Counted from the stretch's first letter, positions 19,906 through 38,716 are shown. The stretch is 64,000 nucleotides of DNA from an uncultured bacterium (GCA_965371515.1 CBDUYR010000001.1:64001-128000); one strand, 5' to 3'. Notes: generated from the sequence alone by a model not told the origin. Translations and numbers: made by a program.

Positions 19906-21693
19906 ATGGCCGATGGAAGAATAGTGAAGATCTCAGGCCCCCTCATCGTCGCCGAGGGGATGGAAGGAGCGAGGATGTTCGAGGTCGCCCGCGTCAGCGA
20001 CCGAGAGCTGATCGGCGAGATCATCGAGCTGCACGGTGACCAGGCGTACATCCAGGTCTACGAGGACACATCGGGGCTCGGGCCGGGGGAGAAGGTCGTG
20101 ACGACCGGCCAGTCGCTGAGCATCGATCTCGGGCCGGGGCTCCTCGAATCGATATACGACGGCATACAGCGCCCGCTAAACGACATCTACGACCAGGTGG
20201 GCCATTTCATCACCCGCGGGATCAACGTGCCGGGCCTCGACCGCAAGCGCAGATTCGACTTCATCCCGAACCCCGACCTGAAGGAAGGCGACGAGATAAA
20301 AGTCGGCGATATCCTCGGCGAGGTGAAGGAGACCGAGCTGATAATGCACAAGGTGATGGTGCCCCCGACAGTGAAGGGCGGCATCCTCAAGAGAAAACCG
20401 GAGAAGGGCACCTGCTTGATCGAGGACGTCATCGCCGAGATCGAGGCGGACGGCGAGGTGCAGGAGGTGAGGATGTTCCACCGCTGGCCGGTAAGGACTC
20501 CCCGCCCGATTACGCGGAAAACCCTTCCCGTCAAGCCGCTCGTCACCGGTCAGAGGGTGATCGACATGTTCTTCCCGATAAGCCAGGGCGGAACGGCTAC
20601 CATTCCCGGCCCCTTCGGTGCGGGAAAGACGGTTGTCCAGCACCAGCTCGCCAAGTGGTCCGACGCGAACGTCATAGTCTACGTCGGATGCGGTGAGCGC
20701 GGAAACGAGATGACCGACGTGCTCCAGGAATTCCCCGAACTGATCGATCCGAAAACGGGACGGCCCCTGATGGAGAGGACAGTGCTTATCGCCAACACGT
20801 CGAACATGCCCGTCGCGGCGCGCGAGGCATCGGTCTATACCGGCATCACGATCGCCGAGTACTACAGGGACATGGGATACGACGTCGCCGTACTGGCCGA
20901 TTCGACCTCGAGATGGGCCGAGGCGATGAGGGAGATGTCCGGACGTCTCGAGGAGATGCCCGGCGAGGAAGGGTATCCCGCGTATCTTCCGTCGAGGCTC
21001 GCCGAATTCTACGAGCGCTCGGGAAAAGTCGTCTGCAGCGGGAGCGAAGAACGCCAGGGAACGCTCAGCATCGTAGGTGCCGTCTCGCCGCCGGGAGGAG
21101 ACCTCTCCGACCCGGTCGTCCAGGCGACGCTCAAGGTTGTCAAGGTCTTCTGGTCGCTCGAGGACCAGCTCGCGTTCGAGAGGCACTTCCCCGCGATCGG
21201 GTGGCTGTCGAGCTACTCGCTTTACCATGACAACCTCCGAGAGTATTTCCGTAGTGAGGTCGAGGAGGAGTGGGAGGACGTGCGGATCACAGCGATGATC
21301 CTGCTCCAGAAAGAGGCCGAGCTCAAGGAACTCGTGCGGCTCGTAGGTGTCGACTCGCTCTCGTCGAACGACAGGATGGTCCTCGAGACATCGAAGCATA
21401 TCAGGGAGGATTTCCTTCACCAGTCGGCATTCGATCCGGAAGACGCGTATACGAGACTCGATAAACAGTTCCTCATGCTCAAGGTGATCGTCGAACTCCA
21501 CAGAGCGTGCGAGCGTGCCATCGAGAAGAAGGCCCCCCTTCGCAAGCTGCTCGAGCTCCCCGTCAGGGAGAAGATCGCGAGGATGAAGCATATCAAGGAA
21601 GACGATCTTGCCGAGTTCGATGTGATTCTCGGCGATATCACGGCTCAGATAGCCGACAGCATGACCGAGAACAGAGTCGGAGAGGCGGAGTGA
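19906..21693 (+). CDS. atpA: A/V-type ATPase catalytic subunit A
   Basis: GPFGAGKT P-loop, [32 protein letters not shown]. No intein seen. Confidence 0.98.
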
Positions 21694-21694
21694 C

Positions 21695-23149
21695 ATGGTA
21701 ACAGAGTACAACACTATCGAAGAGATCGTCGGCCCGCTGGTATTTCTCAATGACGTCGATCACGCGACGGTAGAAGAGCTTGTCGAGGTCGAGCTTCCCA
21801 GCGGAGAACAGCGGCGGGGCAAGGTCCTCGAAGTCAACCGCAACAGGGTCCTCATCCAGCTGTTCGAGGGGACGAGAGGCGTCGACATCACCAGGACAAA
21901 GGTCCGCTTCCTCGGCAGGAGCCTCGAGCTCGCCGTATCGCCCGACATCCTCGGAAGGATCTTCAACGGGCTGGGCTCGCCGATCGACGACGGCCCGGCG
22001 ATCATCCCCGAGAAGAAACTCGACATCAACGGTGATCCGATAAACCCCTATGCGCGAGTCTATCCGCAGGAATTCATCCAGACCGGAATTTCCGCGATCG
22101 ATGGTCTCAATACGCTCGTGCGCGGGCAGAAACTCCCGATCTTCTCAGGCTTCGGCCTTCCACACTCCGAGCTCGCCGCGCAGATCGCCAGGCAGGCGAC
22201 CGTGCCCGGAAAAGAGGCGGCATTCGCCATCGTCTTCGCCGCTATGGGTATTACCTTTGAGGAGGCGAACTACTTCATCCGTGATTTCCAGGAGACCGGC
22301 GCGATGGAGAGGGTGGTCCTCTTCATCAATCTTGCCAACGACCCGACTATCGAGCGTATAGCGACGCCGCGCGCCGCGCTGACGGCCGCTGAGTACCTCG
22401 CCTTCGAGAAGGGGATGCACGTGCTGGTTATCCTTACCGACATGACGAACTACTGCGAGGCGCTCCGCGAGGTGTCGGTCGCGAGGAAGGAGATCCCGGG
22501 CAGGCGCGGTTATCCCGGTTATCTCTACACCGACCTGGCGACGATCTACGAACGGGCCGGGCTGCTCAAGGGCGAGAAGGAGGGAGAAGTGCTTCCGGGG
22601 TCGATCACACAGATCCCCGTCCTCTCGATGCCCGACGACGACAAGACGCATCCGATACCCGACCTTACAGGATACATCACCGAAGGACAGGTGATCCTCG
22701 ACCGCGTGCTGCACCGCAAGGGGATCTATCCGCCGATCAACGTCCTGCCGAGCCTCTCGAGGTTGAGGGACAAGGGTATCGGCGAGGGCAGGACGCGCGA
22801 GGACCATCCGCATATAGCGAACCAGCTCTTCTCCTCCTACGCGAAGAGCAAGGAGATCGAAGAGCTCGCCGTGGTGCTCGGCGAGGCGGCGCTGACCGAC
22901 ACCGACAGGGCGTTCATGAAGATGGGCGAGAAGTTCGAGGACCGTTTCATCAGGCAGGCGCTTGACGAGAACCGCACGATCGAGGAGACCCTGTCGATCG
23001 GCTGGGACCTGCTTACAATGATCCCGAAGTCCGAGATCAAGAGGATCAAGGACGATATGATAGAGAAGTACCTTCCCGTGAAGACTGACGATGACGAAGA
23101 TCCTGCCGTCGCGTCCGCTGACACCGCGGAGGAGGAAGGCGCCGAGTGA
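21695..23149 (+). CDS. atpB: A/V-type ATPase subunit B
   Basis: [45 protein letters not shown]. Acidic C-terminal tail. Confidence 0.98.
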
Positions 23150-23778
23150 AGAGGAAGGTCAACCCCAACAGGATGATGCTGCTGCGCCTGCGGCGAAGGA
23201 GCGAGCTCGCCCGGCGGGGACACAAGCTCCTGAAGAACAAGCAGGAGAAACTGATGCAGAACTTCATCGCGCTCGCCCGCGACACGTCCGAGCTGCGCCG
23301 CCGCCTCGAGAAGATCTTCATGGAGATATCGATGCACTACCTCAAAGGGCGATCAGTCACCGGAAGGCAGAGCATCGAGGATGCCCTCTCGCTGACGACG
23401 ATGGCGGGCACGCTCGAGACAGGCATGCGCAGCGAGATGAACGTCAGGATCCCCGAGTTCACGTTCACTGTTCCCGAAGCCGATCCCGCTTACAGCCTGC
23501 AGGGCACTTCACCCGAGCTCGACGTTGCGTTCGAGAAGCTCCGCGACAACTTCCAGGAGCTGCTCGACCTGGCGGCCTCGGAGGACGGGTTGTTCAAACT
23601 CGCCGACGAACTGGAGAAGACACGCCGCAGGGTGAACGCTCTCGAGTACATCCTCATCCCCGACCTCGAGGTCCAGATCCGATCGATCGAGAGCAAGCTC
23701 AGCGAGGCGGAGCGCAGCACGCAGACCCGCCTGATGAAGATCAAGGACATGGTCAAGGCGAGAGAATCCCGGCAATAG
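23146..23778 (+). CDS. atpD: A/V-type ATPase subunit D
   Basis: [29 protein letters not shown]. Confidence 0.96.
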
Positions 23779-24085: not shown

Positions 24086-24118
24086 TTGACACTGTGTGAA
24101 GGGATAATTATATTATCC
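24086..24118 (+). promoter_or_regulatory. Sigma70-like promoter of the TBDR operon with an overlapping inverted repeat
   Basis: TTGACA (24086-91), 17 bp, TATATT (24109-14). GGATAAT-TAT-ATTATCC inverted repeat at 24102-24118 covers the -10. Confidence 0.6.
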
Positions 24119-24242
24119 GTGAGGAATTAGAGGAGAGTTTGAGACCCCACACCTGCACCCGCCCCGCATGCTGTCCGTATGATTCGGGACGGGCCCTATA
24201 TACAGGCATAGATGCTACACAGGCAAGTACAAGGAGATTGAC

Positions 24243-27200
24243 ATGAAAGCCCGCTCTCATTTCAGGCTGCTTGCCGTTGTGCTTCCCGCCCTGACAATCC
24301 TTGTGGCTGCGCAATCCGCCATGGCGCAATCGGGAAGGCTCAACGGCAGAGTGACGGAAGCAGAGACAGGCAGTGCCCTTCCCTATGCCAACGTAGTGAT
24401 CGTCGGCACAAACATGGGTGGAATGACCCTGACCGATGGGACGTTCACGATCGTCGGAGTTCCCGTCGGCACATATACCATCAAGGTAATGATGATGGGA
24501 TTCAAGCCGGAAGAAGAGACCGGTGTCAGAGTCAATGCCAGCCAGACGACGAGGGTTGATTTCAAGCTTATAACGCAGATCGTGGGTAAGACGCAGGAGA
24601 TCGTCGTCGAGGCCGAACAGGTCCAGATCGATGTGAGGAGCTCCGATGTCAAGCACAGGGTATCCAGGGACGAGCTCATGGAACTCCCCGTAGACGATGT
24701 CGTCGAGGCGATCGCGCTCAAGGGCGGCATCGTAAAGACCGGCGACGAACTGCACGTCCGTGGAGGGCGTGACAGTGAAGTCCAGTTCCAGATCGACGGT
24801 GTTCCGGTGGACGATCCTCTCGGAGGCGGGATGATCTCGGTAGGTATGCTGGGTACCAGCGACAGCGAAATCATCACCGGGGGAATGGACGCCGAGTACG
24901 GAAATGCGCAGTCGGCCATCGTGAACATCAGCACGAGAGAGGGCGGCCGGAGCTTCGAGGGACAGGTCAGGTACATGACTGACGATTTCGGCCGCAAGGA
25001 CAAGACATATACCAACTATGACAGGTTCAGCCTCGGTTTCGGCGGACCTACCGGGGTCAGGAACATCACGTTCTACGTCTCGGGCGAGTTCACCGCATCG
25101 GACGGTGAGAACTGGGCGATCTGGGACAGGAGCAATCATATGGCCGGTACGCCGATGTCGGACATCATGAGCTTCGCGCAGAGGCAGTCCGAATCGTACA
25201 ACGTCCAGGGTAAGCTCGCCTGGCAGGTCAAGCCGGGGATGAAGCTGATCGGCGAGGCGATCTATTCGCACGCCCGCTCCCACGGATATCTCAACAACTG
25301 GAACATCGAGGGATACGTCCAGAAAGTATATAGATTTACGACACTGCGGGCCAGCCGTGAAAGCCTCGCCGACGATGCGAGGGCCTTCGGCCCGTACGTC
25401 TCGGTCTATCACGGCCCATGGATAGAGATGTCAGAGGCCGAGCTCGAAGCGATGAGGATCGATTACTATCCCGGCACCCTTGAGGAGAGGCGCCGCACGA
25501 TCTACCCGATCACGATCTTTACAAAGGTGCGCGATCCGAACAACCCGGAAGCCGGCGCTTTCATAATCAGGTACGACAACTTCTTCGCGAGACTGGTGGA
25601 GAACATCTACGGCGAAGAGACCGAGATTATCTGGGAAGAGCAGGTCATCAACTCAGAGGGCCAGGCGGAAGTGCAGAACAAGGTCCTCTTCGAGGGATTC
25701 CAGAATCCCGACTCGAAGTTCAGTTATTTCAGGGATGATTCGAGCTTCGTCTACTTCAACTCGGCCGAACGGACCAATGTCGCTATCAGCAATAACCTCA
25801 ACCTCAAGGTGGCGCTGAACCACAATATCAACGACAACGTGCTGTACACGATCAACCTCAGCCGTTCGCAGTTCGACAGGGAAGTGTCGGTCAAGGATCC
25901 CGTGACGGGTGAACTGAAAGACCCGCAGGAATTCCTCGTGGCCGGATTGCCGACGATCCTGCCCAGCGGAGTGTTCATGCTAAGCGGCGTGAGCAACGCG
26001 ATGTGGTACAGTGATCCGGAATATCCATACTTCGTCGATGCGTACGATTACCCGTTTTACCAGGACCGCAGCTCAGTCATATACACGGTGAAGGGAGACA
26101 TCACGTCCCAGCAGTGGTACGGGCACGTGTTCAGGACCGGAGTGCAGTTCATATACAACGATCTCCAGGACCGGGCGATCAACCGCCCGGGCAGCGTGAG
26201 GCGTATGGAGGACGGCACCTACATGATCGGGACGAGCGCGAACGTATTCCATAACTTCAATCCCGAGGCATCCTTTTATGTACAGGACAAGTGGGAATAC
26301 CAGGGTATGGTAGTCAATGCGGGGGTAAGGTTCGATTTCTTCTCGCCTGGAAACAACACCGAGATCCTGATCAGCTCGGCGGAGATCGATCCCACCGTTG
26401 AAAAGTACAAATTCCAGATCAGCCCGCGCCTCGGCTTCGCGTTCCCGATCACCGACAAGGACAAGTTCCACTTCCATTACGGAAGGTTTACACAGTGGCC
26501 GAGCAGATCCTTCCTGTTCCGCACGCAGGACCTGGTCGCCGGGACCGGAACCCTCGGCAACCCCAATCTCGACGAGGAGCTCACAGTTTCGTACCAGGCC
26601 GGTGTATCGCACCAGTTTACCGAAACGGTCGCGGCGAACTTCGTTGTGTTCAACAAGGATATCTATGGACTGATCTCGTCGACCAGGGTAACCGACGAGG
26701 ACCTCGGGATTCAGGGCTACCGCTATATCAACAGGACATATGCGAGCTCGCGGGGAATGGAGGTCGCGATCAACAAACGTCTCAGCCACCACATCGGAGG
26801 CGAGATCTCATATACATGGTCGTTCGCCGACGGCGTTGCCTCCGACGCTGACTTCGGCGTCACAGCCCAGGGGCTGTCCCACCTGCCGACACAGGAGATG
26901 CCCCTCGACTGGGATCAGCGCCACACGCTGAACGTCACCTTGAGGCTGCAGGACGAGAACAAATGGGGAGCCACGGTGGTCTACTCCTTTGGAAGCGGGC
27001 TGCCATGGACGCCTGTCGACAGGTTCGCCAGGCGCGCGGACCCACTGTGGGAGAACTCGATGAGGCTCGACGCGACGCACGTTATCAACATTCAGGGAAG
27101 AAAGAAGTTCAACATATACGGACAGGAGCTGACGCTGTTCTTCGAGGGCAGGAACCTGCTCAACGATGATGTGCTCCTGCCATTCGGTACGGCTCCCTTC

Positions 27201-27386
27201 GCCAATCCCCTCATGGGCAATGCCAGGATGGACGGCGGCTCCTATCTCACCGAGACGGGGAATTTCGGAGGAGCGTACCTCCAGGACCTTGACGAGGACG
27301 GCATCGATGACTTCACGCCGGTGAACGATCCTACGATCTGGGCCAGGCACAGACAGTGGCGCATAGGCTTTGGGTTCGAGTTCTAG
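24243..27386 (+). CDS. TonB-dependent outer-membrane receptor with N-terminal carboxypeptidase-regulatory-like domain
   Basis: Signal peptide; GRVTEAETGSALPYANVVI...GTYTI domain; plug LHVRGGRDSEVQFQIDGVPV and GGMDAEYGNAQSAIVNI; barrel motifs ISPRLGFAFPI, GNPNL, LDWDQRHTLN; C-terminal IGFGFEF. Confidence 0.93.
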   Translation: MKARSHFRLLAVVLPALTILVAAQSAMAQSGRLNGRVTEAETGSALPYANVVIVGTNMGGMTLTDGTFTIVGVPVGTYTIKVMMMGFKPEEETGVRVNASQTTRVDFKLITQIVGKTQEIVVEAEQVQIDVRSSDVKHRVSRDELMELPVDDVVEAIALKGGIVKTGDELHVRGGRDSEVQFQIDGVPVDDPLGGGMISVGMLGTSDSEIITGGMDAEYGNAQSAIVNISTREGGRSFEGQVRYMTDDFGRKDKTYTNYDRFSLGFGGPTGVRNITFYVSGEFTASDGENWAIWDRSNHMAGTPMSDIMSFAQRQSESYNVQGKLAWQVKPGMKLIGEAIYSHARSHGYLNNWNIEGYVQKVYRFTTLRASRESLADDARAFGPYVSVYHGPWIEMSEAELEAMRIDYYPGTLEERRRTIYPITIFTKVRDPNNPEAGAFIIRYDNFFARLVENIYGEETEIIWEEQVINSEGQAEVQNKVLFEGFQNPDSKFSYFRDDSSFVYFNSAERTNVAISNNLNLKVALNHNINDNVLYTINLSRSQFDREVSVKDPVTGELKDPQEFLVAGLPTILPSGVFMLSGVSNAMWYSDPEYPYFVDAYDYPFYQDRSSVIYTVKGDITSQQWYGHVFRTGVQFIYNDLQDRAINRPGSVRRMEDGTYMIGTSANVFHNFNPEASFYVQDKWEYQGMVVNAGVRFDFFSPGNNTEILISSAEIDPTVEKYKFQISPRLGFAFPITDKDKFHFHYGRFTQWPSRSFLFRTQDLVAGTGTLGNPNLDEELTVSYQAGVSHQFTETVAANFVVFNKDIYGLISSTRVTDEDLGIQGYRYINRTYASSRGMEVAINKRLSHHIGGEISYTWSFADGVASDADFGVTAQGLSHLPTQEMPLDWDQRHTLNVTLRLQDENKWGATVVYSFGSGLPWTPVDRFARRADPLWENSMRLDATHVINIQGRKKFNIYGQELTLFFEGRNLLNDDVLLPFGTAPFANPLMGNARMDGGSYLTETGNFGGAYLQDLDEDGIDDFTPVNDPTIWARHRQWRIGFGFEF

Positions 27387-27420
27387 GAAAATCTGTGGAG
27401 AGATACTGGAGGTCCTAACG

Positions 27421-29904
27421 ATGATACGCAAGGGATGCATGCTGATCGCTCTTGCTTCGCTTCTGATCTTCATGCTTCACTCTCCGGCTTCTGCCAGGGA
27501 GGAAGAGGGGGAATGGAGCGACAAGCTCAATCAGCTTGACCAGATATGGGTATACGACGGAACAGGCATACATAATGTCGGAAATCTCCAGATGCATGTG
27601 TGCAACTGGGGCTGCTTCGGGTCGTACCCCGGCTCGCGCCAGCCGACGGCCGAGTACCCTTCGGCGCAATGGCCCGCCAACTCTGGCGTGGAATATCTTT
27701 ATATCGCCGGTCTCTGGGTCGGGGCGAGGAAGGGTGGTATCCCCGTCGTTTCGACCTCCGCGTACCAGATCGAGTTCAGGCCTCCCGGAACGGAGGACCC
27801 GAACGCGAAGATCTACACGGCGTTCGAGGGGATCCAGAACGGAGCGAGGCTGCCGAGCCCCGACGACGATGACAAAGACGGAGTCTCGGACGAGGACTGG
27901 CTGAACGGCGAGGACGACGATGGCGACGGGAAGATCGACGAGGATTTCGGCGCGATAGGCAAGCAGATGTTTACCTGCTGGTTCACCGATGATCATCCGG
28001 GCGCCTCCCAGAGGTACCCCGAGCATACTCCGCTTCACCTGTTCGTGAGGCAGGAAAGCTACCAGTGGGAAGAGGAGCAGTTCTACGACTTCGTCGGCGT
28101 CGAGTACAAGATCACAAACTATGGCACTGATATCGTAGAGGATGTTTTCGTGGGCTTCTTCGCCGACGGCGATGCCGGCCCGCGCGACCGCGAGCAGTAC
28201 TGGATGGATGACTGCACCGGTCTCTGGGAGGGAATCCGCTGCGCACAGAAGGGCGAGAGGCAGGTTCCGGTGAGGATGAGCGTCGCCTACTTCTACGACA
28301 AGGACGGCGACGAGGGGATGACGACAGGTTACCTCGGCATCATCTTCCTCGGCCACGACGTCGATCCGCTCGGTGAGAACGCACCGCAGAAGGTCGGAAT
28401 CACGTCGTACCAGAACTTCTCGGGCGATCAGCCGTATGCGAACGGCGGCGACCCGACGAACGACTACGAGCGGTACGAGCTCATGAGCAAGGAAGGCAAG
28501 GACCGTAACGCCGAGGTCCCGCGCGATTACAGGATGATGATGGCCACGGGCCCCTTCCGCGAGCTGTATCCCGACAGCACGATGATACTCCAGGTAGCAT
28601 TTGTCGTGGGCGAGGGCCTCGAGGGTATGCTCTCCTCCGCGGCGAGCGCGACGATGGCCTTCCAGGGCAACTGGTTCGATATCGACGGTAACCCCCAGAC
28701 GGGAGTCCTCGGCAGGGAGACGCCGCTGCCCGGTCCGGTGAGCGGTATAGATCCCGATTCATGCGACAATGACTTAGCCCTCCTGTCGGCTGCCAGGGGC
28801 GAGATCCTCTGGATAAACCTCGATTGCGGCGAGGAGCAAGAGCTCATAAAAAGCACGAGATGCCCGAGGGGCGAGGCGATCGACGAGGATTTTATGACCG
28901 GTGTGTTCGGCAAGGAGACCAACGTCAAGTGGCTCGTAGGTTCGGCGCCGCCTCCGCCTAATATGAGGATCCTTCCTTTCGACCACAGGATCGTCCTCCT
29001 CTGGGACAACTTCAGCGAGGTCACTCCGGACGTCTCGACGCTAGAGTTCGACTTCGAGGGATACAGGATCTGGAGGGCCGACGGATGGGGAAGGCCTCTC
29101 GGCACTTCGGTACTCAGCGGACCGGCCAGGGAACTGTGGCAGCTCCTCGAGGAGAGGGACCTGATCAACGGTGTCCTGCCTGACATCGAGTTCAAGAAAC
29201 CGATATCCGAGGATGGATGGCAATACGATCCTCTCCCGGAGCTCGGCAACAAGGACGAACTGATGGCATACTTCGAGGAGAACCTCTGGTACTATCCGCT
29301 CGATACGGTTCCCTGCCCGCCAGGGCTGAGCAATCTTCAATGCGATACCCTCGAATCGCTCGCGAGGTTTAACCTCGGCTTCGAGGGCGGCCTGCAGTAC
29401 TACCAGTTCGCAGACATAGACGTGCATAACGGCATGCACTATTTTTACAGCATCACGGCCTACGATCACCTGCTGGTCAGTGGTATGCCGGTCAAGCCCA
29501 ACAAGTACGGTGATCCGGCATCGAACTTCCAGTACACGGTGCCACTCTCCGATGCGCAGGAGGCGGAGGGATACCTCGACGAAGAGGTATATGTCGTTCC
29601 CAATCCGGCGACGGCGGAATCGATGGATCCGTGGAAGCTCGAGCCCAACATGGATGATCCTACGGGTATCAAGGTCGAGTTCAGGAACCTGCCAGCATGC
29701 AGGAGCACTGTCAGGATATACTCTCTCGCCGGCGACCTCGTCGAGACGCTGTACCATGACGGATCGGAGGGACGGGGTACTCTGATGTGGGATCTCGTAT
29801 CCCGCAACGGTCAGAATGTGACCAGCGGCGTCTATCTCTTCGCGGTGGAACCGGACGACGAAAAGTTTAACAGGACTATCGGAAAGTTCGTGGTTATCAG
29901 ATAA
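27421..29904 (+). CDS. Secreted protein with acidic Ca-binding repeats, split FN3-like domain and T9SS-like C-terminal Ig domain
   Basis: GGAGG RBS and signal peptide; QWPANSGVEYLYIAGLWVG; DDDDKDGVSDED/DDDGDGKIDEDF; APPPP...LLWD...FEGYRIWR...NGMHYFYSITAYD; C-terminal VYVVPNP...IYSLAGDLV...WDLVSRNGQNVTSGVY...GKFVVIR. Confidence 0.8.
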   Translation: MIRKGCMLIALASLLIFMLHSPASAREEEGEWSDKLNQLDQIWVYDGTGIHNVGNLQMHVCNWGCFGSYPGSRQPTAEYPSAQWPANSGVEYLYIAGLWVGARKGGIPVVSTSAYQIEFRPPGTEDPNAKIYTAFEGIQNGARLPSPDDDDKDGVSDEDWLNGEDDDGDGKIDEDFGAIGKQMFTCWFTDDHPGASQRYPEHTPLHLFVRQESYQWEEEQFYDFVGVEYKITNYGTDIVEDVFVGFFADGDAGPRDREQYWMDDCTGLWEGIRCAQKGERQVPVRMSVAYFYDKDGDEGMTTGYLGIIFLGHDVDPLGENAPQKVGITSYQNFSGDQPYANGGDPTNDYERYELMSKEGKDRNAEVPRDYRMMMATGPFRELYPDSTMILQVAFVVGEGLEGMLSSAASATMAFQGNWFDIDGNPQTGVLGRETPLPGPVSGIDPDSCDNDLALLSAARGEILWINLDCGEEQELIKSTRCPRGEAIDEDFMTGVFGKETNVKWLVGSAPPPPNMRILPFDHRIVLLWDNFSEVTPDVSTLEFDFEGYRIWRADGWGRPLGTSVLSGPARELWQLLEERDLINGVLPDIEFKKPISEDGWQYDPLPELGNKDELMAYFEENLWYYPLDTVPCPPGLSNLQCDTLESLARFNLGFEGGLQYYQFADIDVHNGMHYFYSITAYDHLLVSGMPVKPNKYGDPASNFQYTVPLSDAQEAEGYLDEEVYVVPNPATAESMDPWKLEPNMDDPTGIKVEFRNLPACRSTVRIYSLAGDLVETLYHDGSEGRGTLMWDLVSRNGQNVTSGVYLFAVEPDDEKFNRTIGKFVVIR

Positions 29905-29937
29905 ATGAATGTTAGATTAATTTCAGGAGGTCTGGTG

Positions 29938-30882
29938 ATGTTTCGCAAGGTGTTTCTCGGGTTGGTCGTAGTGATGATGCTGGCGCCCGGCATCGCTCAC
30001 GGCGGGACCGAGCCGTTCGAGAAAGTGGGCATGTACGCGGCTCAGTTTCTGAAGATCGGCGTATCGGCGAGAGCGGTCGGAATGGGTAGCGCGTATACGG
30101 CGGTCGCCGACGGCGCTACCGCGATCTACTGGAACCCGGCCGGTATGGTCGCGCAGACCAGGACGCAGGTCACTCTCAATACGGTCACGTGGCCGGCTGA
30201 CATCGACATTTATTTCGTCGCCGCGACGTTTTCCACTCCGTATCTCCCCGGAACCTGGGGAATCAGTGCGAGGGCCCTGACGATGGATCCGCAACTCGAG
30301 CGTACGATCTACATGCCCGAGGGGACGAACCGGTTCTTCGACGCTGGCGACATGTCCTTCGGACTGTCGTACGCGATGTGGTTCACCGACAGGTTCTCCG
30401 CCGGTATAACGGCCCATTTCATCCATATGGGCCTGGCCGACAAGAGCGTCCAGACAATGGCGTTCGACTTCGGCCTCCTCTACCGGATCGGTATCCAGGG
30501 CATGAAGCTTGGTATGATGATCCAGAGTCTCGGTTCCGAGGTCGACTTCGACGACCGGGCCTCCAAGATGCCGACCCTTTTCAAGGTGGGCCTGAGTGTG
30601 GATGCCTACAGGCGAGGCGCTCACGCTCTGCTCGCGTCCGGAGAGTTCGCCCATCCTTCCGACAACAAGGAGAGGCTGAACGTAGGGCTCGAGTACGGAT
30701 TCAACGAGTTCTTTTTTCTGCGTTCCGGATATAACATTGGGTACGATACGCAGGGTCTCGCGTGGGGTGTCGGATTCAATTTCGACACGAGCCAGACTTC
30801 CGATATCGGTTTCGATTACGCCTGGGAGGACCTTGCTTACCTCGGACAGGCTCACCGGTTCACCCTCAATTTCAGCTATTAG
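29938..30882 (+). CDS. PorV/PorQ (UPF0164, FadL-like) outer-membrane beta-barrel
   Basis: Signal peptide; AAQFLKIGVSARAVGMGSAYTAVADGATAIYWNPAG hatch motif; amphipathic strands; C-terminal HRFTLNFSY. Confidence 0.87.
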   Translation: MFRKVFLGLVVVMMLAPGIAHGGTEPFEKVGMYAAQFLKIGVSARAVGMGSAYTAVADGATAIYWNPAGMVAQTRTQVTLNTVTWPADIDIYFVAATFSTPYLPGTWGISARALTMDPQLERTIYMPEGTNRFFDAGDMSFGLSYAMWFTDRFSAGITAHFIHMGLADKSVQTMAFDFGLLYRIGIQGMKLGMMIQSLGSEVDFDDRASKMPTLFKVGLSVDAYRRGAHALLASGEFAHPSDNKERLNVGLEYGFNEFFFLRSGYNIGYDTQGLAWGVGFNFDTSQTSDIGFDYAWEDLAYLGQAHRFTLNFSY

Positions 30883-30923
30883 GCTGAGGAGAGGGCGCCG
30901 GGCCGCATGAGGCCCGGTCTGTT

Positions 30924-32435
30924 ATGAGAGAAATGCGAAATATCACAATGATGACGATGATTGTCCTGTTGCTGCTGGCGCCGGAAGCAGCAGGGCAAGT
31001 CGCAAGGGGGGAAGGTGATTTCGAGTTTTTCCTCGACATTTCCGCCATTCCCCTGGAGAACGGCAGGACCCTCGGGCTCTTCCATATCGCCGTTCCCATC
31101 AAGGAGATACATTACAAGGAAAAGGACGGATCGTTCGAGGCTGCGGTAAAAGTGGCCATCGTGCTGATGTGCGGCGATGAGAAGATCCACGAGAAGGGCC
31201 TTGTGATCAGGGATCAACGCGACACGAAGCCCCTGGTCAATGATCTTTCAGGATTCATCTACATGTCAGATTCCAGTTCCGTCGATCCGGGAAGCTACAC
31301 GATCAATGTCCGGATCGAGGATCTCAAGCGCAGGAAAAAGACCCTTATGGGCCTGGTCAATCGCAAACATTACTATTCGGAGATCAAGGACCTGGAGATA
31401 GAGATCGCCGGGTTTTCCCCGGACCGCGTGGCCCTCAGCGATCCGATGCTGATCTGGAGCCGCGAGAGCGGCGGGCGATACGTTCCTAATCCGATGCAGA
31501 TCTACGGGCTGAAGAACGATACCCTTTCGTTTTTCGCCAGCGGCCTTATGCCGGACGTGGATGTCCCCGATTCGGTCGAAGTCCACCTGTCCGTCCTCGA
31601 CTCGAAGGGAGAGACGATAGGCTCGAAGAGCGGTCTCATTTCGGTAAGGAACGGCAAGATACTGATCTTCGGATCGTTCGACGTCAACACATGGCCGGCG
31701 GGCAATTACATGGCAAGGGTGGAGGTGCTCCACGGCGGTGCGCTGAGAGCCACGTCGGCGAAGGAGTTCAGCGTCGCGTGGCAGCTGCTCAACTGGCAGA
31801 AGCCACGGAGGGATGTCCTGGTAGAGGCGAAGCTCCTCTTCAGGGATTCCGAATTCAACGAATTCCGCAGGATGAGTATCGGCGAACAGGAACGGGTACT
31901 GACCGCCTACTGGAAGAAGCTCGACCCGACGCCGCATACGGCGGTCAATGAACTGTATGAAATATTCCAGAACCGCGTAAGGTACGCCGACGCGAATTTT
32001 GCCGGCGGCGGTACGAGGGGCGCACTTTCAATCCGGGGGCTGCTCTATACAAAACTGGGTCCGCCGGACGAGATCATCTCGGAGAGTGTTCCCTTCAACA
32101 GGATAGATCTGAACGAGACGCTCGACAAGCTCGAGGACAAGTACAGCGTGATCATTCACAGCACCTACAAGGGTCCCGGCACCGATTACGCGATGATGAA
32201 GGAAGCAACGGATAATATTCAGAGGCCCTACAGGGGCGGCGGGATGGACACAGGCGGGTACGAACTCTGGATGTACATGATGCGGGGCGATCCGCTACTC
32301 GAGAGGGACAGGATAATGATGGGTGAGACCGGTATGAGGTATCTGTTCGTCGACAAGGACGGCATCGGAAACTACGTACTGGTAGGCACTTCCGAGGAAA
32401 TTGAGGGCTTTGGCGCGACGACCCGTGTGGAATGA
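30924..32435 (+). CDS. GWxTD domain-containing protein with degenerate signature
   Basis: Signal peptide; Ig-like N-terminal part; YWKKLDPTPHTAVNELYEIFQNRVRYADANF...RGLLYTKLGPPDEI...YELWMY...YLFVDKDGIGNY. The signature position reads GALSI. Confidence 0.82.
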   Translation: MREMRNITMMTMIVLLLLAPEAAGQVARGEGDFEFFLDISAIPLENGRTLGLFHIAVPIKEIHYKEKDGSFEAAVKVAIVLMCGDEKIHEKGLVIRDQRDTKPLVNDLSGFIYMSDSSSVDPGSYTINVRIEDLKRRKKTLMGLVNRKHYYSEIKDLEIEIAGFSPDRVALSDPMLIWSRESGGRYVPNPMQIYGLKNDTLSFFASGLMPDVDVPDSVEVHLSVLDSKGETIGSKSGLISVRNGKILIFGSFDVNTWPAGNYMARVEVLHGGALRATSAKEFSVAWQLLNWQKPRRDVLVEAKLLFRDSEFNEFRRMSIGEQERVLTAYWKKLDPTPHTAVNELYEIFQNRVRYADANFAGGGTRGALSIRGLLYTKLGPPDEIISESVPFNRIDLNETLDKLEDKYSVIIHSTYKGPGTDYAMMKEATDNIQRPYRGGGMDTGGYELWMYMMRGDPLLERDRIMMGETGMRYLFVDKDGIGNYVLVGTSEEIEGFGATTRVE

Positions 32436-32476
32436 CGTGGATAAAGAGCGCTGAAACAGGCCCCTTGAATTTTTCG

Positions 32477-32505
32477 TTGACAAGGGGGTTTCGATAAAGT
32501 ATTTT
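32477..32505 (+). promoter_or_regulatory. Sigma70-like promoter upstream of exbB
   Basis: TTGACA (32477-82), 17 bp, TATTTT (32500-05). Confidence 0.5.
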
Positions 32506-32665
32506 ACAGCAGTTAAGAGGCTGATACGGGCTGATTTGCGTGTTTTCCGGACAATTCTTCCAGCCCAGTCGCGGAGAAAAAGCCTCTCGACTATTTCAAC
32601 GGAAAATCCGTAACTGAACGAAAGTACACGATAGGTACTGTTTTTCCCCAAAAGGAGCGCGGCGC

Positions 32666-33580
32666 ATGGTAAAGGCAAACTCTTCGGTCAGGTCGATTCT
32701 TCTCATATCGGTTCTCCTCGTTGCATTTGCTTCTGTCGCCGTTGTGGCTCAGGAAGCCGAGGAAGTCGAGGAAGTCCAGGAAGCCCAGGAAGTTCAGGAA
32801 GTTCAGGAAGCCGAGGAAATTATTGAGCCTGAATTTACCGTCCAGGCCGAGACCGATTCACTGGTCACCGCAAAGAACGACTCGATGGTGGTCGCAAAGG
32901 CTGTTGAAGATATGGCAGAGAGGAAGAAGCTCGGAGCCGTTCTTTACAACCTCAAGCACAGCGGTATCGGCGAGAAGTATGTCGATGGTGGTAACTTCAT
33001 GCACGCCCTCCTTATCGCGTCAATAATCGGCTTTGTCTTTATCATCGAGAGGTTCGTCACTCTGTCGCGTGCCCGCGTCAACGTCAGAAGGCTGATGTCC
33101 GAGGTGCTTTCGGCGATACGTTCGGAGGGTATAAGCGGAGCGATGGGCGTTTGCGAGAGGACGAGGGGGCCGATCGCAGCAGTGCTCCACTCCGGCCTGC
33201 TCCGGGCAGGCCGAGGTCCCGACGCGGTGAAAGAAGCTATTGAGACGGCGGGCAGTATCGAGACTTCGTTCCTCGAGAGGGGACTGGTCGCGATCGCTAC
33301 CGTCGCGCAGGTCGCTCCGCTCCTCGGATTCCTCGGAACGGTATCCGGAATGATCAGCGCGTTCGCCGCTATCGCGGCGGCCGAGCAGGTCAGCGCGAAG
33401 GTGGTGGCCTCCGGTATCGAGGAGGCGCTCATCACCACGGCGACCGGTCTTATTATCGCCATTCCGGCGAGTATCGGCCATTCGTTCTTTGTCTCACAGA
33501 TCGACAGATTCGTTCTCGAGATGGAGGAGGCCTCGGCCGAGCTCGTCAACGAGCTCATCGAGATGGGTATGGGCCAGTAA
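32666..33580 (+). CDS. exbB: ExbB/TolQ/MotA-family proton channel with signal peptide and acidic N-terminal extension
   Basis: GGNFMHALL, IIERF, LERGL, APLLGFLGTVSGMISAF, GIEEALITTATGL. Confidence 0.9.
   Translation: MVKANSSVRSILLISVLLVAFASVAVVAQEAEEVEEVQEAQEVQEVQEAEEIIEPEFTVQAETDSLVTAKNDSMVVAKAVEDMAERKKLGAVLYNLKHSGIGEKYVDGGNFMHALLIASIIGFVFIIERFVTLSRARVNVRRLMSEVLSAIRSEGISGAMGVCERTRGPIAAVLHSGLLRAGRGPDAVKEAIETAGSIETSFLERGLVAIATVAQVAPLLGFLGTVSGMISAFAAIAAAEQVSAKVVASGIEEALITTATGLIIAIPASIGHSFFVSQIDRFVLEMEEASAELVNELIEMGMGQ
32750..32821 (+). repeat. In-frame 9-bp tandem repeat, 8 units (consensus SAGGAAGYY), encoding QEA/EEV/QEV
   Basis: caggaagcc gaggaagtc gaggaagtc caggaagcc caggaagtt caggaagtt caggaagcc gaggaaatt. 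Confidence 0.9.
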
Positions 33581-33600
33581 CCCGTCCGGAGTAGCAGAAT

Positions 33601-34008
33601 ATGATTAAGAAGAGAAGCAAGGTTACTTCCGAATTCAGCACCGCCTCGATGTCGGACATCAACTTTCTTCTGCTCATCTTTTTCCTGGTGAGCACGATGT
33701 TCGCGGTCGAGAAGGGACTGCCGATGGCTCTTCCGGGTCAGCAGTCAAAGTCGGTAAAACTGAAGAGGGACAACGTTCTCACGATCCAGGCGTTTGCCAA
33801 CGGGTCGATCGTCATCAAGGGTACGGGACCGGTGAGCGTCCATGATCTCAAGCAGATCGTGGAGAACAAGCTCATTGCCAACCCCAAGCTGGTCGTCGTC
33901 ATAGAGACGCATCCCAGCGCCGAATACGCCGTGATGATCGATATCCTCGACGAGTTGAGGCTTGCCAACGCCTCGAGGATATCGTTGAGGACGATGAAGA
34001 GCGGTTAA
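33601..34008 (+). CDS. exbD: ExbD/TolR family protein
   Basis: ASMSDINFLLLIFFLVST TM segment with conserved Asp; YAVMIDILDEL. Confidence 0.9.
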   Translation: MIKKRSKVTSEFSTASMSDINFLLLIFFLVSTMFAVEKGLPMALPGQQSKSVKLKRDNVLTIQAFANGSIVIKGTGPVSVHDLKQIVENKLIANPKLVVVIETHPSAEYAVMIDILDELRLANASRISLRTMKSG

Positions 34009-34023
34009 CAGAGGAGAGACGCC

Positions 34024-34431
34024 TTGAAAATTACAAAGAAACAGGGTGTTCAGAATTCGATCCCGACAGGGTCGATGGCCGATATCATCTTCCTCCTGTT
34101 GATCTTCTTCATGGTTACGACGATCTTCAAGATGGAAGAGGGACTTCCGATTTCCCTGCCGCGGGCCGAAACGGGCGCGGAACTCGATCGGGAAAAGCTC
34201 ATGAATATCTGGGCCGACCGGTTCAGCAGGGTCAGCATCAACGACAAGCTGATACAGGTCGAGCAGATCGATGCCGTGGTATCGAAACGGTTCGAGGAGA
34301 ACAGGAGCCTCATCGTTGCCTTCAACATCGACAGGCGGACGAAATACGACCTGGTCTCCCGCATAATGGAGCAACTGAAGGAAGCAAACGCCGTAAACGT
34401 GACATTCGTCTCTATCAGCGAAGAAGATTAG
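34024..34431 (+). CDS. exbD: ExbD/TolR family protein (second paralogue)
   Basis: GSMADIIFLLLIFFMVTT; ISLPRA; YDLVSRIMEQL. TTG start after GAGGAG. Confidence 0.9.
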   Translation: MKITKKQGVQNSIPTGSMADIIFLLLIFFMVTTIFKMEEGLPISLPRAETGAELDREKLMNIWADRFSRVSINDKLIQVEQIDAVVSKRFEENRSLIVAFNIDRRTKYDLVSRIMEQLKEANAVNVTFVSISEED

Positions 34432-34453
34432 ATAATCGGAAAAGGGGGCCTTC

Positions 34454-35086
34454 GTGGCCGTTGTCGCTGTTGAAAACCAGAAATTCAAGGCGGGATACAA
34501 CAAGTATCTGCGGAACTCGCTCTACGCGACGCTTGTTCTGCATTTTGTCGGCATTTACTTTTCGCCCCCCTTCGAATTCAAGCCTTATGTGTTGAAGGAA
34601 CAGGAATTCATCGTGATCGATACGGCCGATGACTTCGAGCTTCCACCTCCTCCAAAGGAGATCGATCAGCCCGTGGTCCCGATCGCTGCCGAAGAGGGTG
34701 AAGAAGTAGACGAGGATACCGAGATCGCCCCGACGAGTTTCGATCGCATCGAGAACCTTCCGCCTCCTCCTCCGCCCCCGTCCGAGTCGTCTTCGGAGTT
34801 CTACGCGTTCGACGAACCTCCCATGCTGATCAAGTACACCTCGCCGACATATCCTGCCCTGGCGAGACAGGCCGGCATCGAGGGTACAGTACTGCTGCGG
34901 GTAATAGTCGGAACGGACGGCAAGGTGGAGAGCGCCTCGGTCATCCAGTCCGATGTGACGCCGGCGATGGAGAAAGCGGCAATCGCAGCGGCAAGAAAGT
35001 TCATCTTCAAGCCCGCGAAGCAGAGGACGGTCCCGGTGAGGGCAAGCATGGCTGTTCCGATCAGATTCAAGCTGCACGGTAGTTGA
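34454..35086 (+). CDS. tonB: Energy transducer TonB
   Basis: TM segment with His (ATLVLHF), Pro-rich linker, C-terminal YPALARQAGIEGTVLLRVIVGTDGKV...FKPA. Confidence 0.92.
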   Translation: MAVVAVENQKFKAGYNKYLRNSLYATLVLHFVGIYFSPPFEFKPYVLKEQEFIVIDTADDFELPPPPKEIDQPVVPIAAEEGEEVDEDTEIAPTSFDRIENLPPPPPPPSESSSEFYAFDEPPMLIKYTSPTYPALARQAGIEGTVLLRVIVGTDGKVESASVIQSDVTPAMEKAAIAAARKFIFKPAKQRTVPVRASMAVPIRFKLHGS

Positions 35087-35110
35087 TACCTTGCGAATAA
35101 AGATATTACG

Positions 35111-35141
35111 AGGCCCGGAATATTAACCGGGCCTTTTTTTT
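35111..35141 (+). terminator. Rho-independent terminator after tonB
   Basis: AGGCCCGG-aatattaa-CCGGGCCT followed by a T run. Confidence 0.88.
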
Positions 35142-35307
35142 GCCCTTTCGGGGGAGTGGGGAAGGCCTCCAGGCCTCATGCCAAGGATATGTTGACATGC
35201 TGTAGCTCTTGATTGAAACTTAAGGACCGAATATTCGTATCATTTAAGTGTATCATTATACAGAGTCACCGGTTTCACAGTCCGTAACGCAAGGAAAGGC
35301 TTCTACG

Positions 35308-36678
35308 ATGTTTCGAGCAAAGAGAGGAATTTCGCTCTCCGTAATAGCGGTGAGTGCGGCGATCATGGTCTCGACGGCGGTATCCGCAGGGTTTTCCGCG
35401 GAGAGGATATTGTCGCTGAGGGAGTGTATCGATATCGCGCTCGTGAGGAATCCCGACATGGGGATGGCTCGGCAGTCGCTCAAGAAATCGGAGAGCAACG
35501 TGCTATACGGTTACGGGAACCTTCTTCCCAATCTGCAGCTCGATTTCTACGCCGGCCACCGGTATTACGGCCCGTCTTCCGTACTGATCGACGATTCGGG
35601 CCGCCCGGTGCAGCAGCAGGGATTCGATTTCGAGGACTACACATTCCGTATCGGCTCCGACATTGTCTTCTGGGACGGCGGTGCCAACTACGCGAGGCTC
35701 AGGCAGGCGAAACGGAACCGCGAGGGAGCGAAGGAAGAGCTTCAGTACAACTACGACATGATCACGGCCACCGTCATCCGGGCTTACTACAACGTCGTCA
35801 GATTCAAGAGGCTGACCGTCGTCGCCGAGGAGAGTGTCGACCAGGCGAGCCAGAGTCTCGACAGGACCGAGGCGCTGCTCGAGGTCGGCTCCGGCACGCG
35901 GGCCGACGTCCTGAAGGCAAAGGTGCGTCACTCGAACACGAAGCTCGACATGATCAGGGCGAAGAACCAGGTGGAGCTCGCCCGTGAGGACCTGATAGCG
36001 GTCCTCAACCTCGACGATTACTCCGATCTGGGTGTCGACACTGTGCTTGTGATGAAAATGACCAATCCTGATCCTTCCAGCGAGATCGACTTCGCGATAC
36101 AGAACAGATCTGATCTCAGGGGGCTCAGGGCCTACCTGGATGGGGCCGATGCCGGCGTAAGGGTTGCCAAGAGTGGATGGCTGCCGATATTCGGCGCGAA
36201 CTTCGGATATTTCTGGAACGACCGGAGCATGGCCGAGAATCTCAATTTCTTCAGGGATGAGTATTCCTGGAACATCACCGCCTACATGCGGATCAACGTC
36301 TTCGACAGGTTCTTTACAAGTGCCAACGTCAAGACGGCAAAGGCGGATTACAGGATATCCGAGTACCAGCTCGAGAAGAGCAAGATCAACGCCGTCAGGG
36401 AGATCAAGAGTCTCATCATCGTTATCAACGAGGCGATCGAGCGGGTTGCGGTCGCCACCGAGACAGTCGAGCAGGCGAAGGAAGATGTGCGGCTCGCAGA
36501 GGAGAGGCACAGGGTGGGCGCCGGGACGATGCTCGACACGATCGCGGCCCAGGTGGCCCTTACCGAGGCCAAGGCTGTCGTGATCGATGCGAAGTGCGAT
36601 TACCTCGTTGCTGTTGCCGACCTCGACAGGGCGACCGGCAGGGAATCGAGGCTCAGGGCCGGGCTGGGGAGGGAGTGA
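35308..36678 (+). CDS. TolC-family outer-membrane efflux protein
   Basis: Signal peptide; [50 protein letters not shown]. Confidence 0.9.
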
Positions 36679-36679
36679 G

Positions 36680-37360
36680 ATGCTGATAAAGATCAGCGGG
36701 GTCAAGAAGATATACGAGGTCGGGATACAGAAGATAGAGGCGGTCGCGGGGATCGATCTCGAGATCGATAGGAACGAATACGTCGCGATCATGGGTCCTT
36801 CGGGCTCGGGCAAGTCGACCTTGATGAACCTGCTCGGATGCCTCGATACACCGTCGGCGGGCGACTACTGGCTCAACGGCAAGGAGGTCAGTAACCTCAG
36901 CGACGACGAGCTGGCCAGGATCAGAAACAGGGAGATAGGATTCGTCTTCCAGACGTTCAACCTGCTTCCCAGGGCGACGGCGGCGCAGAACGTCGAGCTG
37001 CCCCTGATATACGCCGGCATCCCGGCCGACGAGCGCCGCAGAAGGGCTGCGGAGGTACTCGAATCGGTCGGCCTCACAGACAGGGCGAAGCACAGGCCGA
37101 ACGAGCTGTCCGGGGGACAGCGCCAGCGGGTGGCCATCGCCAGGGCGATGGTCAACAGGCCGTCGATCATACTCGCCGATGAGCCGACAGGAAACCTCGA
37201 CAGCAAGACGGGCATCGAGATAATGTCGGTATTTGACAAGATCCACCAGGCCGGCAACACTATAGTGATGGTGACTCACGAGGAGCATATCGCCGATTAC
37301 GCCAGGCGCGAGATAAAACTCCTCGACGGAAAGATAGAATCGGACGTCAGGACGGGCTGA
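36680..37360 (+). CDS. MacB/LolD-family ABC transporter ATP-binding protein
   Basis: [46 protein letters not shown]. Confidence 0.95.
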
Positions 37361-37462
37361 CGGCCCCTCCTGAGGGGCGGTAATGCCCACGCAGAAAGCC
37401 CCGGTCCGCTCTGATCGCGGGGTCTTTCGAAAACGCAAGCGGTAGAAAAACCAGGAGGAGAG

Positions 37463-38716
37463 ATGACCAGGAAGCACTGGATAGCCATCGGTGTCGTCGT
37501 TGTGGTGGTCGTGCTCGTACTGATCAACCTCAAGGCCAAGGGCGGCAAGGCGCTCGCGGTCCAGGTGGAGGAAGTGGGCCGTAAGGACCTCGAGATGATC
37601 ATATCCGCCTCGGGAAGCATCAAGCCGAAGCGGCAGATCGACATCAGTGCCTCGAACATCGGCAAGGTCACCAGGGTCGCCGTGAAAGAGGGGGATTACG
37701 TCGAGCAGGGACAGTTCCTCATCCAGATCGATCCGATACAGCTCGAGACCACAGTGGACCGGCTGGAGGCAGCTGTGGCAGCCGCGAAGGCCGGCGAGCG
37801 CCAGGCGAAGTACCAGCTGGAGCTGTACGAAAGCGACTTCCATAGGGCGGAGAGGCTGTTTGCTGATGGATACCTGACCGACAAGGAGGTAAACGACGCC
37901 AGGACTGCCCGGGATGTCGGCAGATCCAACCTCGAATCGGCACGGCAGCTCGTCAGGCAGCAGAAGGCGCAGCTCTCGAGCGCCAGGCACAACCTCCAGG
38001 AGGTGACGATAGAGGCCGAGATGGCCGGCATCGTCACGCGCCTCAACGTGGAGGAGGGCGAGATCGCCATCATGGGAACGCTGAACAATCCAGGGACAGT
38101 GCTGATGACGATAGCAGACCTATCCACCATCGAGGCGGAGGTCGAGGTCGACGAGACCGAGGTGGTCAGCATCGAGATGGGACAGTCCGCCAAGGTCACC
38201 CTGGACGCCTTTCCCGACACATCGTATTCAGGTATCGTGACGGAGGTCGGTAACAGCCCGATACTTTCTTCCTCGGTATCGGGTCAGCAGGGCGTAGATT
38301 TCAAGGTAGTCATCACCGTGACAGATACTATCCCCAACGTCAGGCCGGGCCTTTCGGCCGATTCGGAGATAATCGCCGCCAGGGCCGAGAACGGACTCGC
38401 CATCCCGATACAGAGTCTCACCGTCAGGCAGGAAAAGGACTTGAAGGGATTTGCTGCGAAAGCCGACTCGGCTGCAGCCGACTCTACGGCAGCGAAGAAG
38501 GACGAGGGAAGCAGCGAGGTCGAAGGTGTGTTCGTCGTTGTCGACGGCAGGGCCGAGTTCAGGCAGATAAAGATCGGTATCGCCGGGCAGACCCATTTCG
38601 AGGTCATCTCAGGGCTCGAGGAAGGCGACAAGGTCGTCAGCGGCAACTTCAAGGCGATAAGAGACCTCAGGGACGGGCAGAGGGTCAAGATCACAAAGAA
38701 GGCCGAAAAGAAGTAA
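37463..38716 (+). CDS. MacA-like periplasmic adaptor (membrane fusion protein)
   Basis: N-terminal TM, ASGSIKP, VKEGDYVEQGQFL lipoyl-like half, coiled coil, EVISGLEEGDKVV. Confidence 0.92.
   Translation: MTRKHWIAIGVVVVVVVLVLINLKAKGGKALAVQVEEVGRKDLEMIISASGSIKPKRQIDISASNIGKVTRVAVKEGDYVEQGQFLIQIDPIQLETTVDRLEAAVAAAKAGERQAKYQLELYESDFHRAERLFADGYLTDKEVNDARTARDVGRSNLESARQLVRQQKAQLSSARHNLQEVTIEAEMAGIVTRLNVEEGEIAIMGTLNNPGTVLMTIADLSTIEAEVEVDETEVVSIEMGQSAKVTLDAFPDTSYSGIVTEVGNSPILSSSVSGQQGVDFKVVITVTDTIPNVRPGLSADSEIIAARAENGLAIPIQSLTVRQEKDLKGFAAKADSAAADSTAAKKDEGSSEVEGVFVVVDGRAEFRQIKIGIAGQTHFEVISGLEEGDKVVSGNFKAIRDLRDGQRVKITKKAEKK

Follow-up and report, generated by a model that had tools for sequence, protein, structure and literature searches.

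What does a secreted protein with the C-terminal domain (CTD) of a type IX secretion system (T9SS) do between the genes of a TonB-dependent receptor and a PorV-like outer-membrane barrel? The question is raised by a locus in a 64,000-nucleotide stretch of DNA from an uncultured bacterium (GCA_965371515.1 CBDUYR010000001.1:64001-128000), hereafter the window, in which a receptor gene, the gene of the secreted protein (hereafter the cargo), a barrel gene and a gene for a GWxTD-domain protein are followed by the Ton motor genes for ExbB, two ExbD and TonB. The original prediction, made from the sequence alone, regarded the locus as a possible analogue of SusC/SusD, in which the cargo is held next to the receptor by a barrel of its own, or alternatively as a TonB-energized export module. 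We found that the locus is real and conserved and that it is a new arrangement built from known parts, whose function we infer; it is a core, single-copy gene set present across the phylum. The reading that we favor, with a probability of roughly 0.45, is that the cargo is exported through SprA, tethered in the style of PorZ and PorQ, and acts as the capture partner of a TonB-dependent importer.

The close named homologues belong mostly to Candidatus Krumholzibacteriota, some being labelled Latescibacterota, and by these matches the source genome is Krumholzibacteriota-like. Among 151 genomes of the phylum, the receptor was matched in 145 (once in 132, twice in 13) and the barrel in 148 (singly in 147). 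The CTD subtype of the cargo, searched with a profile built from 18 mostly close sequences and with at most 31 candidates scored per genome, was found in 149 of the 151, in one copy in 59 and in two to six copies in 90, with 307 copies in total. All three were retained even in the 2.2-Mb genomes G047 and G052. In the 77 loci collected with the receptor alignment, the gene 3' of the receptor was the cargo gene in 42, the barrel gene in 28, and unresolved or another gene in 7, and the gene 3' of the barrel was the GWxTD gene in 53 of the 57 readable cases, exbB in 3, and a second cargo gene in 1, with a contig end in another 4. Upstream of the receptor in the same 77 loci lay a DppF-type ATPase gene (26), a V-ATPase D gene (24), an extra cargo gene (11), a contig end (12), or another gene (4). 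Families f1, f3, f4, f5, f7, and f8 have the receptor, cargo, and barrel genes in this order with short gaps, and the order receptor-cargo-barrel-GWxTD-ExbB is kept in six genomes of the class that are more distant (G034, G035, and G037-G040). The arrangement that the original prediction had described from a single stretch is in this way kept across the phylum. Tandem receptor duplicates upstream of a single barrel gene were seen at five loci (L078, L085, L086, L087, and L092), and outside the phylum two Eisenbacteria names were seen among the matches.

The cargo gene can leave the locus. In all five genomes tested among those that lack it there, which represent 5 of the 28 such loci, one or two cargo genes are found at a distance of 120 kb or more. 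These relocated copies score 172-181 bits, and other CTDs no more than 59. Because the six relocated copies form one clade in a quick tree of 39 hand-picked cargo copies (Shimodaira-Hasegawa-like approximate likelihood ratio test, 100), the relocation was probably one event. Another clade of this tree holds eight copies linked to a lipoprotein gene and two orphans. In 75 metagenome loci, the gene after 82 cargo ends was the barrel gene in 23, a lipoprotein gene in 14, a cargo gene in 5, the receptor gene in 3, and another gene in 31, and 6 were contig ends. One case in the source genome is a 51%-identical cargo paralogue of the same CTD subtype, which is followed by a gene for a 744-amino-acid (aa) predicted lipoprotein (G000:C27:22159-26935) with no Pfam or NCBIfam match; this lipoprotein has five paralogues in the genome, and the cargo-lipoprotein pairing recurs in family f1. 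Elsewhere (G000:C49:265-5928), a 444-aa protein with a related second-tier CTD (55.6 bits) is encoded after two unannotated predicted lipoproteins of 651 and 772 aa, and such second-tier matches, at 46-59 bits, also occur in G041-G045.

The receptor, predicted as a 1047-aa TonB-dependent receptor, is confirmed as such by PF00593 (81.8 bits, cut-off 27), and PF13620 also lies over its cut-off in the family scan, with the plug family PF07715 at 17.9, under its cut-off of 23.9. The protein is made up of a signal peptide, a CarboxypepD_reg N-terminal extension (residues 33-109), a plug, a barrel, and a C-terminal Phe. Its structure model, with a predicted local distance difference test score (pLDDT) of 79, combines a plug with about 22 long strands, counted by eye, and matches the import TonB-dependent transporters (TBDTs) PfeA, FepA, and BtuB (Foldseek, E of 3e-25 to PfeA). 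Residues 117-124 contain three nearly invariant positions in the alignment, and we take this stretch to resemble a TonB box. Across 195 receptor sequences, conservation is highest in loops 1, 9, and 10 (0.88, 0.81, and 0.78) and lowest in the 165-aa variable insert of loop 3 (0.41). A DxDxDG motif is present at 1015. The SusC/RagA subfamily model TIGR04056 gave only 24.8 bits, against a cut-off of 368.25. The receptor gave no match to PF25183, presumably the Oar-like family, on which two further receptors from this genome reach 94.8 and 88.3 (cut-off 30).

The cargo is, as predicted, a secreted protein of 827 aa that is not a lipoprotein and ends in a CTD: it has a type I signal peptide and no lipobox, is acidic (16.6% D+E), and contains 12 Cys. 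Its structure model is confident (pLDDT 94; predicted TM-score [pTM] 0.92). The N-terminal half is predicted to be a beta-supersandwich like the N-terminal domains of GH15, GH116, and GH94 enzymes, with the best matches to the N-terminal parts of the GH15 structures 1ulv and 1lf6 (VIA; Z 19.4, root-mean-square deviation [rmsd] 3.0-3.2, 246-247 aligned residues, 8-10% identity). These glycoside-enzyme matches cover approximately 250 residues of the N-terminal domains, and the secondary structure of the model (DSSP) contains scattered short helices only, without the (alpha/alpha)6 catalytic barrel of GH15, GH94, and GH116. Two conserved DxDxDG-like loops are located in the supersandwich at 149 and 165. 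The following FN3-like domain matched Eph, insulin, and cytokine receptor ectodomains in Foldseek. In the predicted structure, the CTD is closest to that of PorZ (5m11; Z 12.4, rmsd 2.3, 94 aligned, 29% identity), with a weak match to PorU too. By sequence it matches NF052228 far under the cut-off (E of 1e-7), and the tail scores 20.6 on FlgD_ig, under the cut-off of 27; the subtype is separated by more than 100 bits from many generic CTDs in the same genomes. The CTD and the rest of the protein are modelled as one rigid body (pTM 0.92, linker pLDDT >90), which fits a retained CTD. No match of the cargo body to the PorZ body or to C25 peptidases, of the all-beta model to SusD, or of the cargo to PDB sequences was found; cargo relatives were not found on viral contigs, and no longer, fused forms appeared among 3999 candidates, which is weak evidence. 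Supersandwich paralogues with other tails mostly lack residues 428-490 and the FN3 inserts in a "generic" set (n = 44) that is pattern-defined and has some misassigned rows. One such paralogue in the source genome has the same supersandwich half (54% identity over residues 11-510) with a generic CTD, and neither a receptor gene nor a PorV-family gene is nearby (G000:C30:18696-21161).

The presence of a PorV-type barrel and a GWxTD gene is likewise borne out. The barrel belongs to the PorV family (NF033709, 187.6 bits against a cut-off of 90) and is under the cut-offs of all three equivalogs, namely, PorQ (74.5 against 220), which is its best, PorV (65.7 against 250), and PorV2 (61.5 against 325). 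It is a paralogue distinct from the PorV encoded next to porU, which scores 132.2 on the PorV model, above the locus barrel and still under the cut-off of 250. The term "dedicated", used for the barrel in the original prediction, holds in so far as this is a distinct PorV paralogue, but since a single-copy barrel stands against one to six copies of the CTD subtype, we suggest that it serves the CTD class and not one cargo gene. The GWxTD protein scored 58.6 on TIGR04514 (cut-off 28) and under the cut-off on PF20094, and its gene is missing from three loci (L067-L069). Compared with PDB sequences, the barrel and the GWxTD protein gave chance-level matches only. Two further GWxTD genes and lptG/lptF are arranged divergently from sprA (G000:C1:29801-42367), an arrangement that ties GWxTD proteins to envelope-biogenesis genes.

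The original prediction noted that no T9SS core genes occur with the locus; this is true of the window, but sprA and porU-porV are located elsewhere in the genome. SprA is encoded on the same contig, approximately 52 kb upstream of the receptor gene (TIGR04189, 468.6 against 200), next to lptF/lptG and the two GWxTD genes just mentioned, and PorU is encoded on contig C8 (NF033707, 559.4 against 420), followed by the PorV paralogue. The source genome has 74 FlgD_ig matches and 11 PorV_fam matches, 7 of them over the cut-off. A PorV-family gene lies 3' of a gene for a CTD-type protein on C1, C8, C12, C21, C35, and C99; those on C14, C15, C25, and C29 have no CTD-type neighbor in view or lie at a contig end, C2 being omitted from this neighbor check. 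GldM and GldL were not found in the source genome and GldK only under its cut-off, in searches run with no positive control. As for co-occurrence with T9SS core genes in the phylum, SprA was matched in 54 of 61 genomes, but GldM and GldN were matched in 0/61, with no T9SS-bearing control genome, so that divergent copies may escape. SusD (PF07980) was found in none of the 61 genomes with a positive control, in agreement with the lack of SusD noted originally.

The Ton motor is present and ends in a terminator as predicted, but it appears to have its own promoter and tonB is often not in the locus. Because a promoter-like site, not mentioned in the original prediction, precedes exbB, ExbB-ExbD-ExbD-TonB is taken, on sequence grounds, to be a separately promoted unit; a sigma-70-like site is found at this place in 44 of 52 related loci, compared with 63 of 1040 base shuffles, although the relatives are not independent. 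The ExbB orthologue is found once in each of the 61 genomes, and by comparison of coordinates it lies within approximately 6 kb of the barrel gene in 57 and on other contigs in 4. Among 44 loci running from exbB to tolC, tonB is present in 33 and not in 11. TonB independence is not indicated, since 6-9 TonB_C matches were found outside the locus in all five genomes examined whose locus has no tonB. A second cluster of the source genome (G000:C21:27840-38879) lacks a receptor gene and encodes a CTD protein of 1009 aa, a PorV-like barrel that ends in an FlgD_ig domain, a tetratricopeptide-repeat protein of 1054 aa, ExbB, two ExbD, and a TonB_C protein. The barrel-ExbB cluster of C21 was ruled out as a universal T9SS energizer, its ExbB being present in 21/61 genomes and its barrel in 39/61 (23 at E <1e-100).

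Putting these parts together, we suggest that the 827-aa cargo would be exported through the SprA pore of the genome, keep its CTD, and stay docked on the PorV-like barrel, where it would sit as PorZ does on PorQ. This proposal is drawn by analogy from PorZ-PorQ and PorU-PorV, in which PorZ and PorU are reported to keep the CTD and to be anchored by PorQ and PorV (PMC5562754; PMC10202324). The barrel would recognize the CTD subtype and could hold one to several interchangeable cargo paralogues, whether operon-encoded or distant. Beside the TonB-dependent channel, the cargo may capture a sugar- or peptide-like ligand, and the Ton motor would open the receptor for import, and the separately promoted motor would power other receptors as well. 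Ligand capture for the receptor is suggested by the gene linkage, the absence of SusD, a supersandwich with no catalytic barrel, and the flanking Dpp-type ABC (ATP-binding cassette) genes, of which the DppF-type ATPase gene lies directly upstream in 26 of the 77 loci and genes for a family-5 binding protein and permeases lie downstream in the window.

Several observations weigh against this proposal, in which the export route, the retained CTD, the docking, the receptor contact, and the import function are inferred. The CTD is under every curated T9SS-CTD cut-off. Mutarotase-like proteins (Z 12-13) and the periplasmic domain of YidC (Z 12.7) also match the supersandwich, so the shared fold shows no function, and the domain is found in paralogues that stand alone and carry a generic CTD. 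As many as six cargo genes face a single barrel and about one receptor, and one clade of cargo paralogues is located beside an unrelated lipoprotein of approximately 750 aa and not beside the receptor; not every cargo need therefore be a lid. The locus lies inside a long conserved block (gcv, dpp, V-ATPase, tolC-macAB, and mreBCD), which makes synteny alone weak. The near-universal single-copy retention is unlike SusC/SusD and suggests a housekeeping role. Finally, SprA export would have to be energized in a genome where GldLM was not detected.

Compared with known systems, the locus resembles SusC/SusD (RagA/RagB) in that a large TBDT with a carboxypeptidase-regulatory-like N-terminal extension is followed by the gene of a large surface partner. 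However, the partner here is a non-lipoprotein without a match to SusD, the receptor is far below the SusC/RagA cut-off, and the locus is core and single-copy with a partner gene that can be distant or multiplied. SusC/SusD loci have a patchy, multi-copy distribution. The claim of a SusC/SusD analogue is supported by the conserved gene order, the failure to find SusD in the 61 genomes, and the non-lipoprotein cargo with its PorZ-like CTD, with the correction that the cargo gene can lie a long way from that of the receptor. In the T9SS attachment complex of Porphyromonas gingivalis, the PorZ-PorQ and PorU-PorV pairs likewise combine a CTD protein with its cognate PorV-family barrel, and in the locus the CTD is structurally closest to that of PorZ and the barrel scores highest, among the equivalogs, on PorQ. 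Unlike these pairs, it has a barrel under the PorQ and PorV cut-offs, a cargo body of supersandwich and FN3-like domains, and linkage to a TonB-dependent receptor and a Ton motor, and a separate PorU-PorV pair is encoded on C8. The locus might work like a SusC/SusD pair with a PorQ-PorZ-type tether, which we put at a little under even odds, while falling outside SusC/SusD and canonical PorV and PorQ by family membership. In PG1035-PorP-PorE and SprB-SprF, type B CTD cargo is described with PorP/SprF barrels and a periplasmic third partner (PMC9143113). There too a CTD class has its own barrel for surface anchorage, but the locus barrel scores with the PorV/PorQ family, its CTD is PorZ/PorU-like, and the abstract of PMC9143113 names no TBDT for those complexes.

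Other explanations have to be weighed against a capture partner. The cargo and the barrel might form a surface-display pair independent of the receptor (an adhesin, a coat, or, as with PorZ-PorQ, a lipid or sugar handler), and the receptor would be a neighbor through inherited synteny and shared expression. This fits a cargo gene that has moved out of the operon once and works at a distance, the pairing of extra cargo paralogues with a lipoprotein, the pairs of a CTD protein and a PorV paralogue without a receptor in the source genome, and the conserved nature of the whole region. Yet the receptor and barrel genes stay adjacent when the cargo leaves (28 of 70 readable loci, one lineage), the three genes keep their order with short gaps in six families, and all three are retained together across the phylum, and we consider this explanation rather unlikely. 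It is also conceivable, though unlikely, that ExbB-ExbD2-TonB acts via the locus receptor in place of the missing GldLM/GldKN energy chain and pulls the barrel-bound cargo from SprA as a core part of a motor-less T9SS. Cargo release from SprA is reported to need energy (PMC10994853) and GldLM to resemble ExbBD (PMC10202324). The distribution of SprA and the Gld proteins described above, the single ExbB orthologue beside the barrel gene in 57 genomes, and the core single-copy retention, which fits a housekeeping machine, all agree with this explanation. But the Gld searches had no positive control and may have missed divergent homologues, the PorV encoded beside porU is a different protein from the locus barrel, the receptor resembles a standard TBDT with its plug, and a quarter of the loci (11/44) have no tonB. 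With the same low likelihood, the receptor-barrel-ExbBD2(-TonB) unit of Krumholzibacteriota would power or complete T9SS export, and the CTD-subtype cargo would be a structural subunit of the machine.

A complex for envelope upkeep or sensing, with the GWxTD protein as periplasmic partner, is improbable too; it would recycle or monitor a surface polymer of the cell's own making or assist the assembly of large outer-membrane complexes. Such a role would suit a core single-copy set that is kept even in the 2.2-Mb genomes, as well as the two other GWxTD genes beside lptF/lptG and sprA. The Bacteroidota BAM complex (for beta-barrel assembly machinery), in which a FadL-family barrel (BamG) is reported to hold a surface canopy over another barrel, offers a precedent (PMC12611786). 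The locus, however, has no bamA gene, no sigma/anti-sigma pair was seen next to it, and the GWxTD gene is absent from L067-L069. TonB-energized export through the receptor itself, which the original prediction had offered as its alternative, is very unlikely. Oar-ExbBD-TonB of Myxococcus xanthus, which is reported to export PopC (PMC6434023), does provide a precedent with a TBDT of approximately 1050 aa and a Ton system, and the linkage of a Ton motor and the ratio of one receptor to several cargo genes could be explained in this way. However, SprA is encoded in the genome and the CTD of the cargo is of the T9SS type, the receptor lacks the PF25183 match that two other receptors of the genome have, and the Oar model, as outlined in the abstract of PMC6434023, gives no part to a PorV-family barrel.

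The features of the locus are listed in Table 1. All eight open reading frames are on the + strand of the window at the positions originally noted, with intergenic gaps in gene order of 34, 33, 41, 230, 20, 15, and 22 bp, so that the description of four genes with gaps of 33-41 bp behind one promoter and of a terminator after the Ton genes stands. Across the region, 7 promoter-like sites were counted against 5.4 +/- 2.1 in shuffles, which by itself is within chance.

Table 1. Features of the receptor-cargo-barrel locus and its Ton motor, in window coordinates
Feature	Position	Strand	Basis
Sigma-70-type promoter-like site of the four-gene unit	24086-24114	+	11/12 consensus match, 17-nt spacer; consensus match only
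TonB-dependent receptor, 1047 aa	24243-27386	+	PF00593 and PF13620 over cut-off; structure model
Secreted cargo, 827 aa	27421-29904	+	ATG start behind GGAGG; structure model
Predicted beta-supersandwich of cargo, ~residues 42-400	27544-28620	+	Structural matches, DSSP, conservation
FN3-like domain of cargo, ~residues 511-710	28951-29550	+	Foldseek matches, alignment occupancy
CTD of cargo, distinct PorZ-like subtype	29572-29904	+	Structural match to 5m11; score gap
PorV/PorQ-family outer-membrane barrel, 314 aa	29938-30882	+	NF033709 over cut-off
GC-rich hairpin without T-tail, between barrel and GWxTD genes	30897-30918	+	z -2.2, 6/200 shuffles; weak
GWxTD-domain protein, 503 aa, signal peptide	30924-32435	+	TIGR04514 over cut-off
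Second sigma-70-type promoter-like site, 5' of exbB	32477-32505	+	Consensus match
ExbB (MotA/TolQ/ExbB family)	32666-33580	+	Family scan
ExbD 1	33601-34008	+	Family scan
ExbD 2	34024-34431	+	Family scan
TonB	34454-35086	+	Family scan
Intrinsic terminator-like hairpin with T-run	35110-35143	+	Hairpin at 35110-35135, fold z -3.5, 2/200 shuffles

Among the neighboring genes, a V/A-type ATPase operon (window 15460-23778) sits between the dpp genes and the receptor in the source lineage only, and in other families DppF comes directly before the receptor instead. On the other side, tolC lies 3' of the Ton genes throughout the phylum; in the window, positions 35248-46042 encode TolC, a MacAB-like ABC exporter with two permeases, a second GWxTD protein, and the family-5 binding protein with DppB/C-type permeases.

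In the literature searched, from which subscription papers were left out, no paper describing the receptor-cargo-barrel triad was found. What is new here is the phylum-wide single-copy status of the locus, the ratio of one barrel to many cargos, the relocation of the cargo gene with its retention, and the separate promoter of the motor. If the cargo is indeed the capture partner of a TonB-dependent importer, bacteria related to the Fibrobacterota-Chlorobiota-Bacteroidota group that have no SusD would place a capture protein beside a TonB channel by means of T9SS parts and not by a lipid anchor. This would be a second solution to the problem of the lidded transporter and would join two systems that have been studied separately. 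As a core single-copy set in a whole uncultured phylum, the locus probably serves a constant need. It is a concrete candidate for how SprA is energized without GldLM, and its single barrel with many cargos of a sharply separate CTD subtype provides a clean test of how PorV-family barrels sort CTDs.

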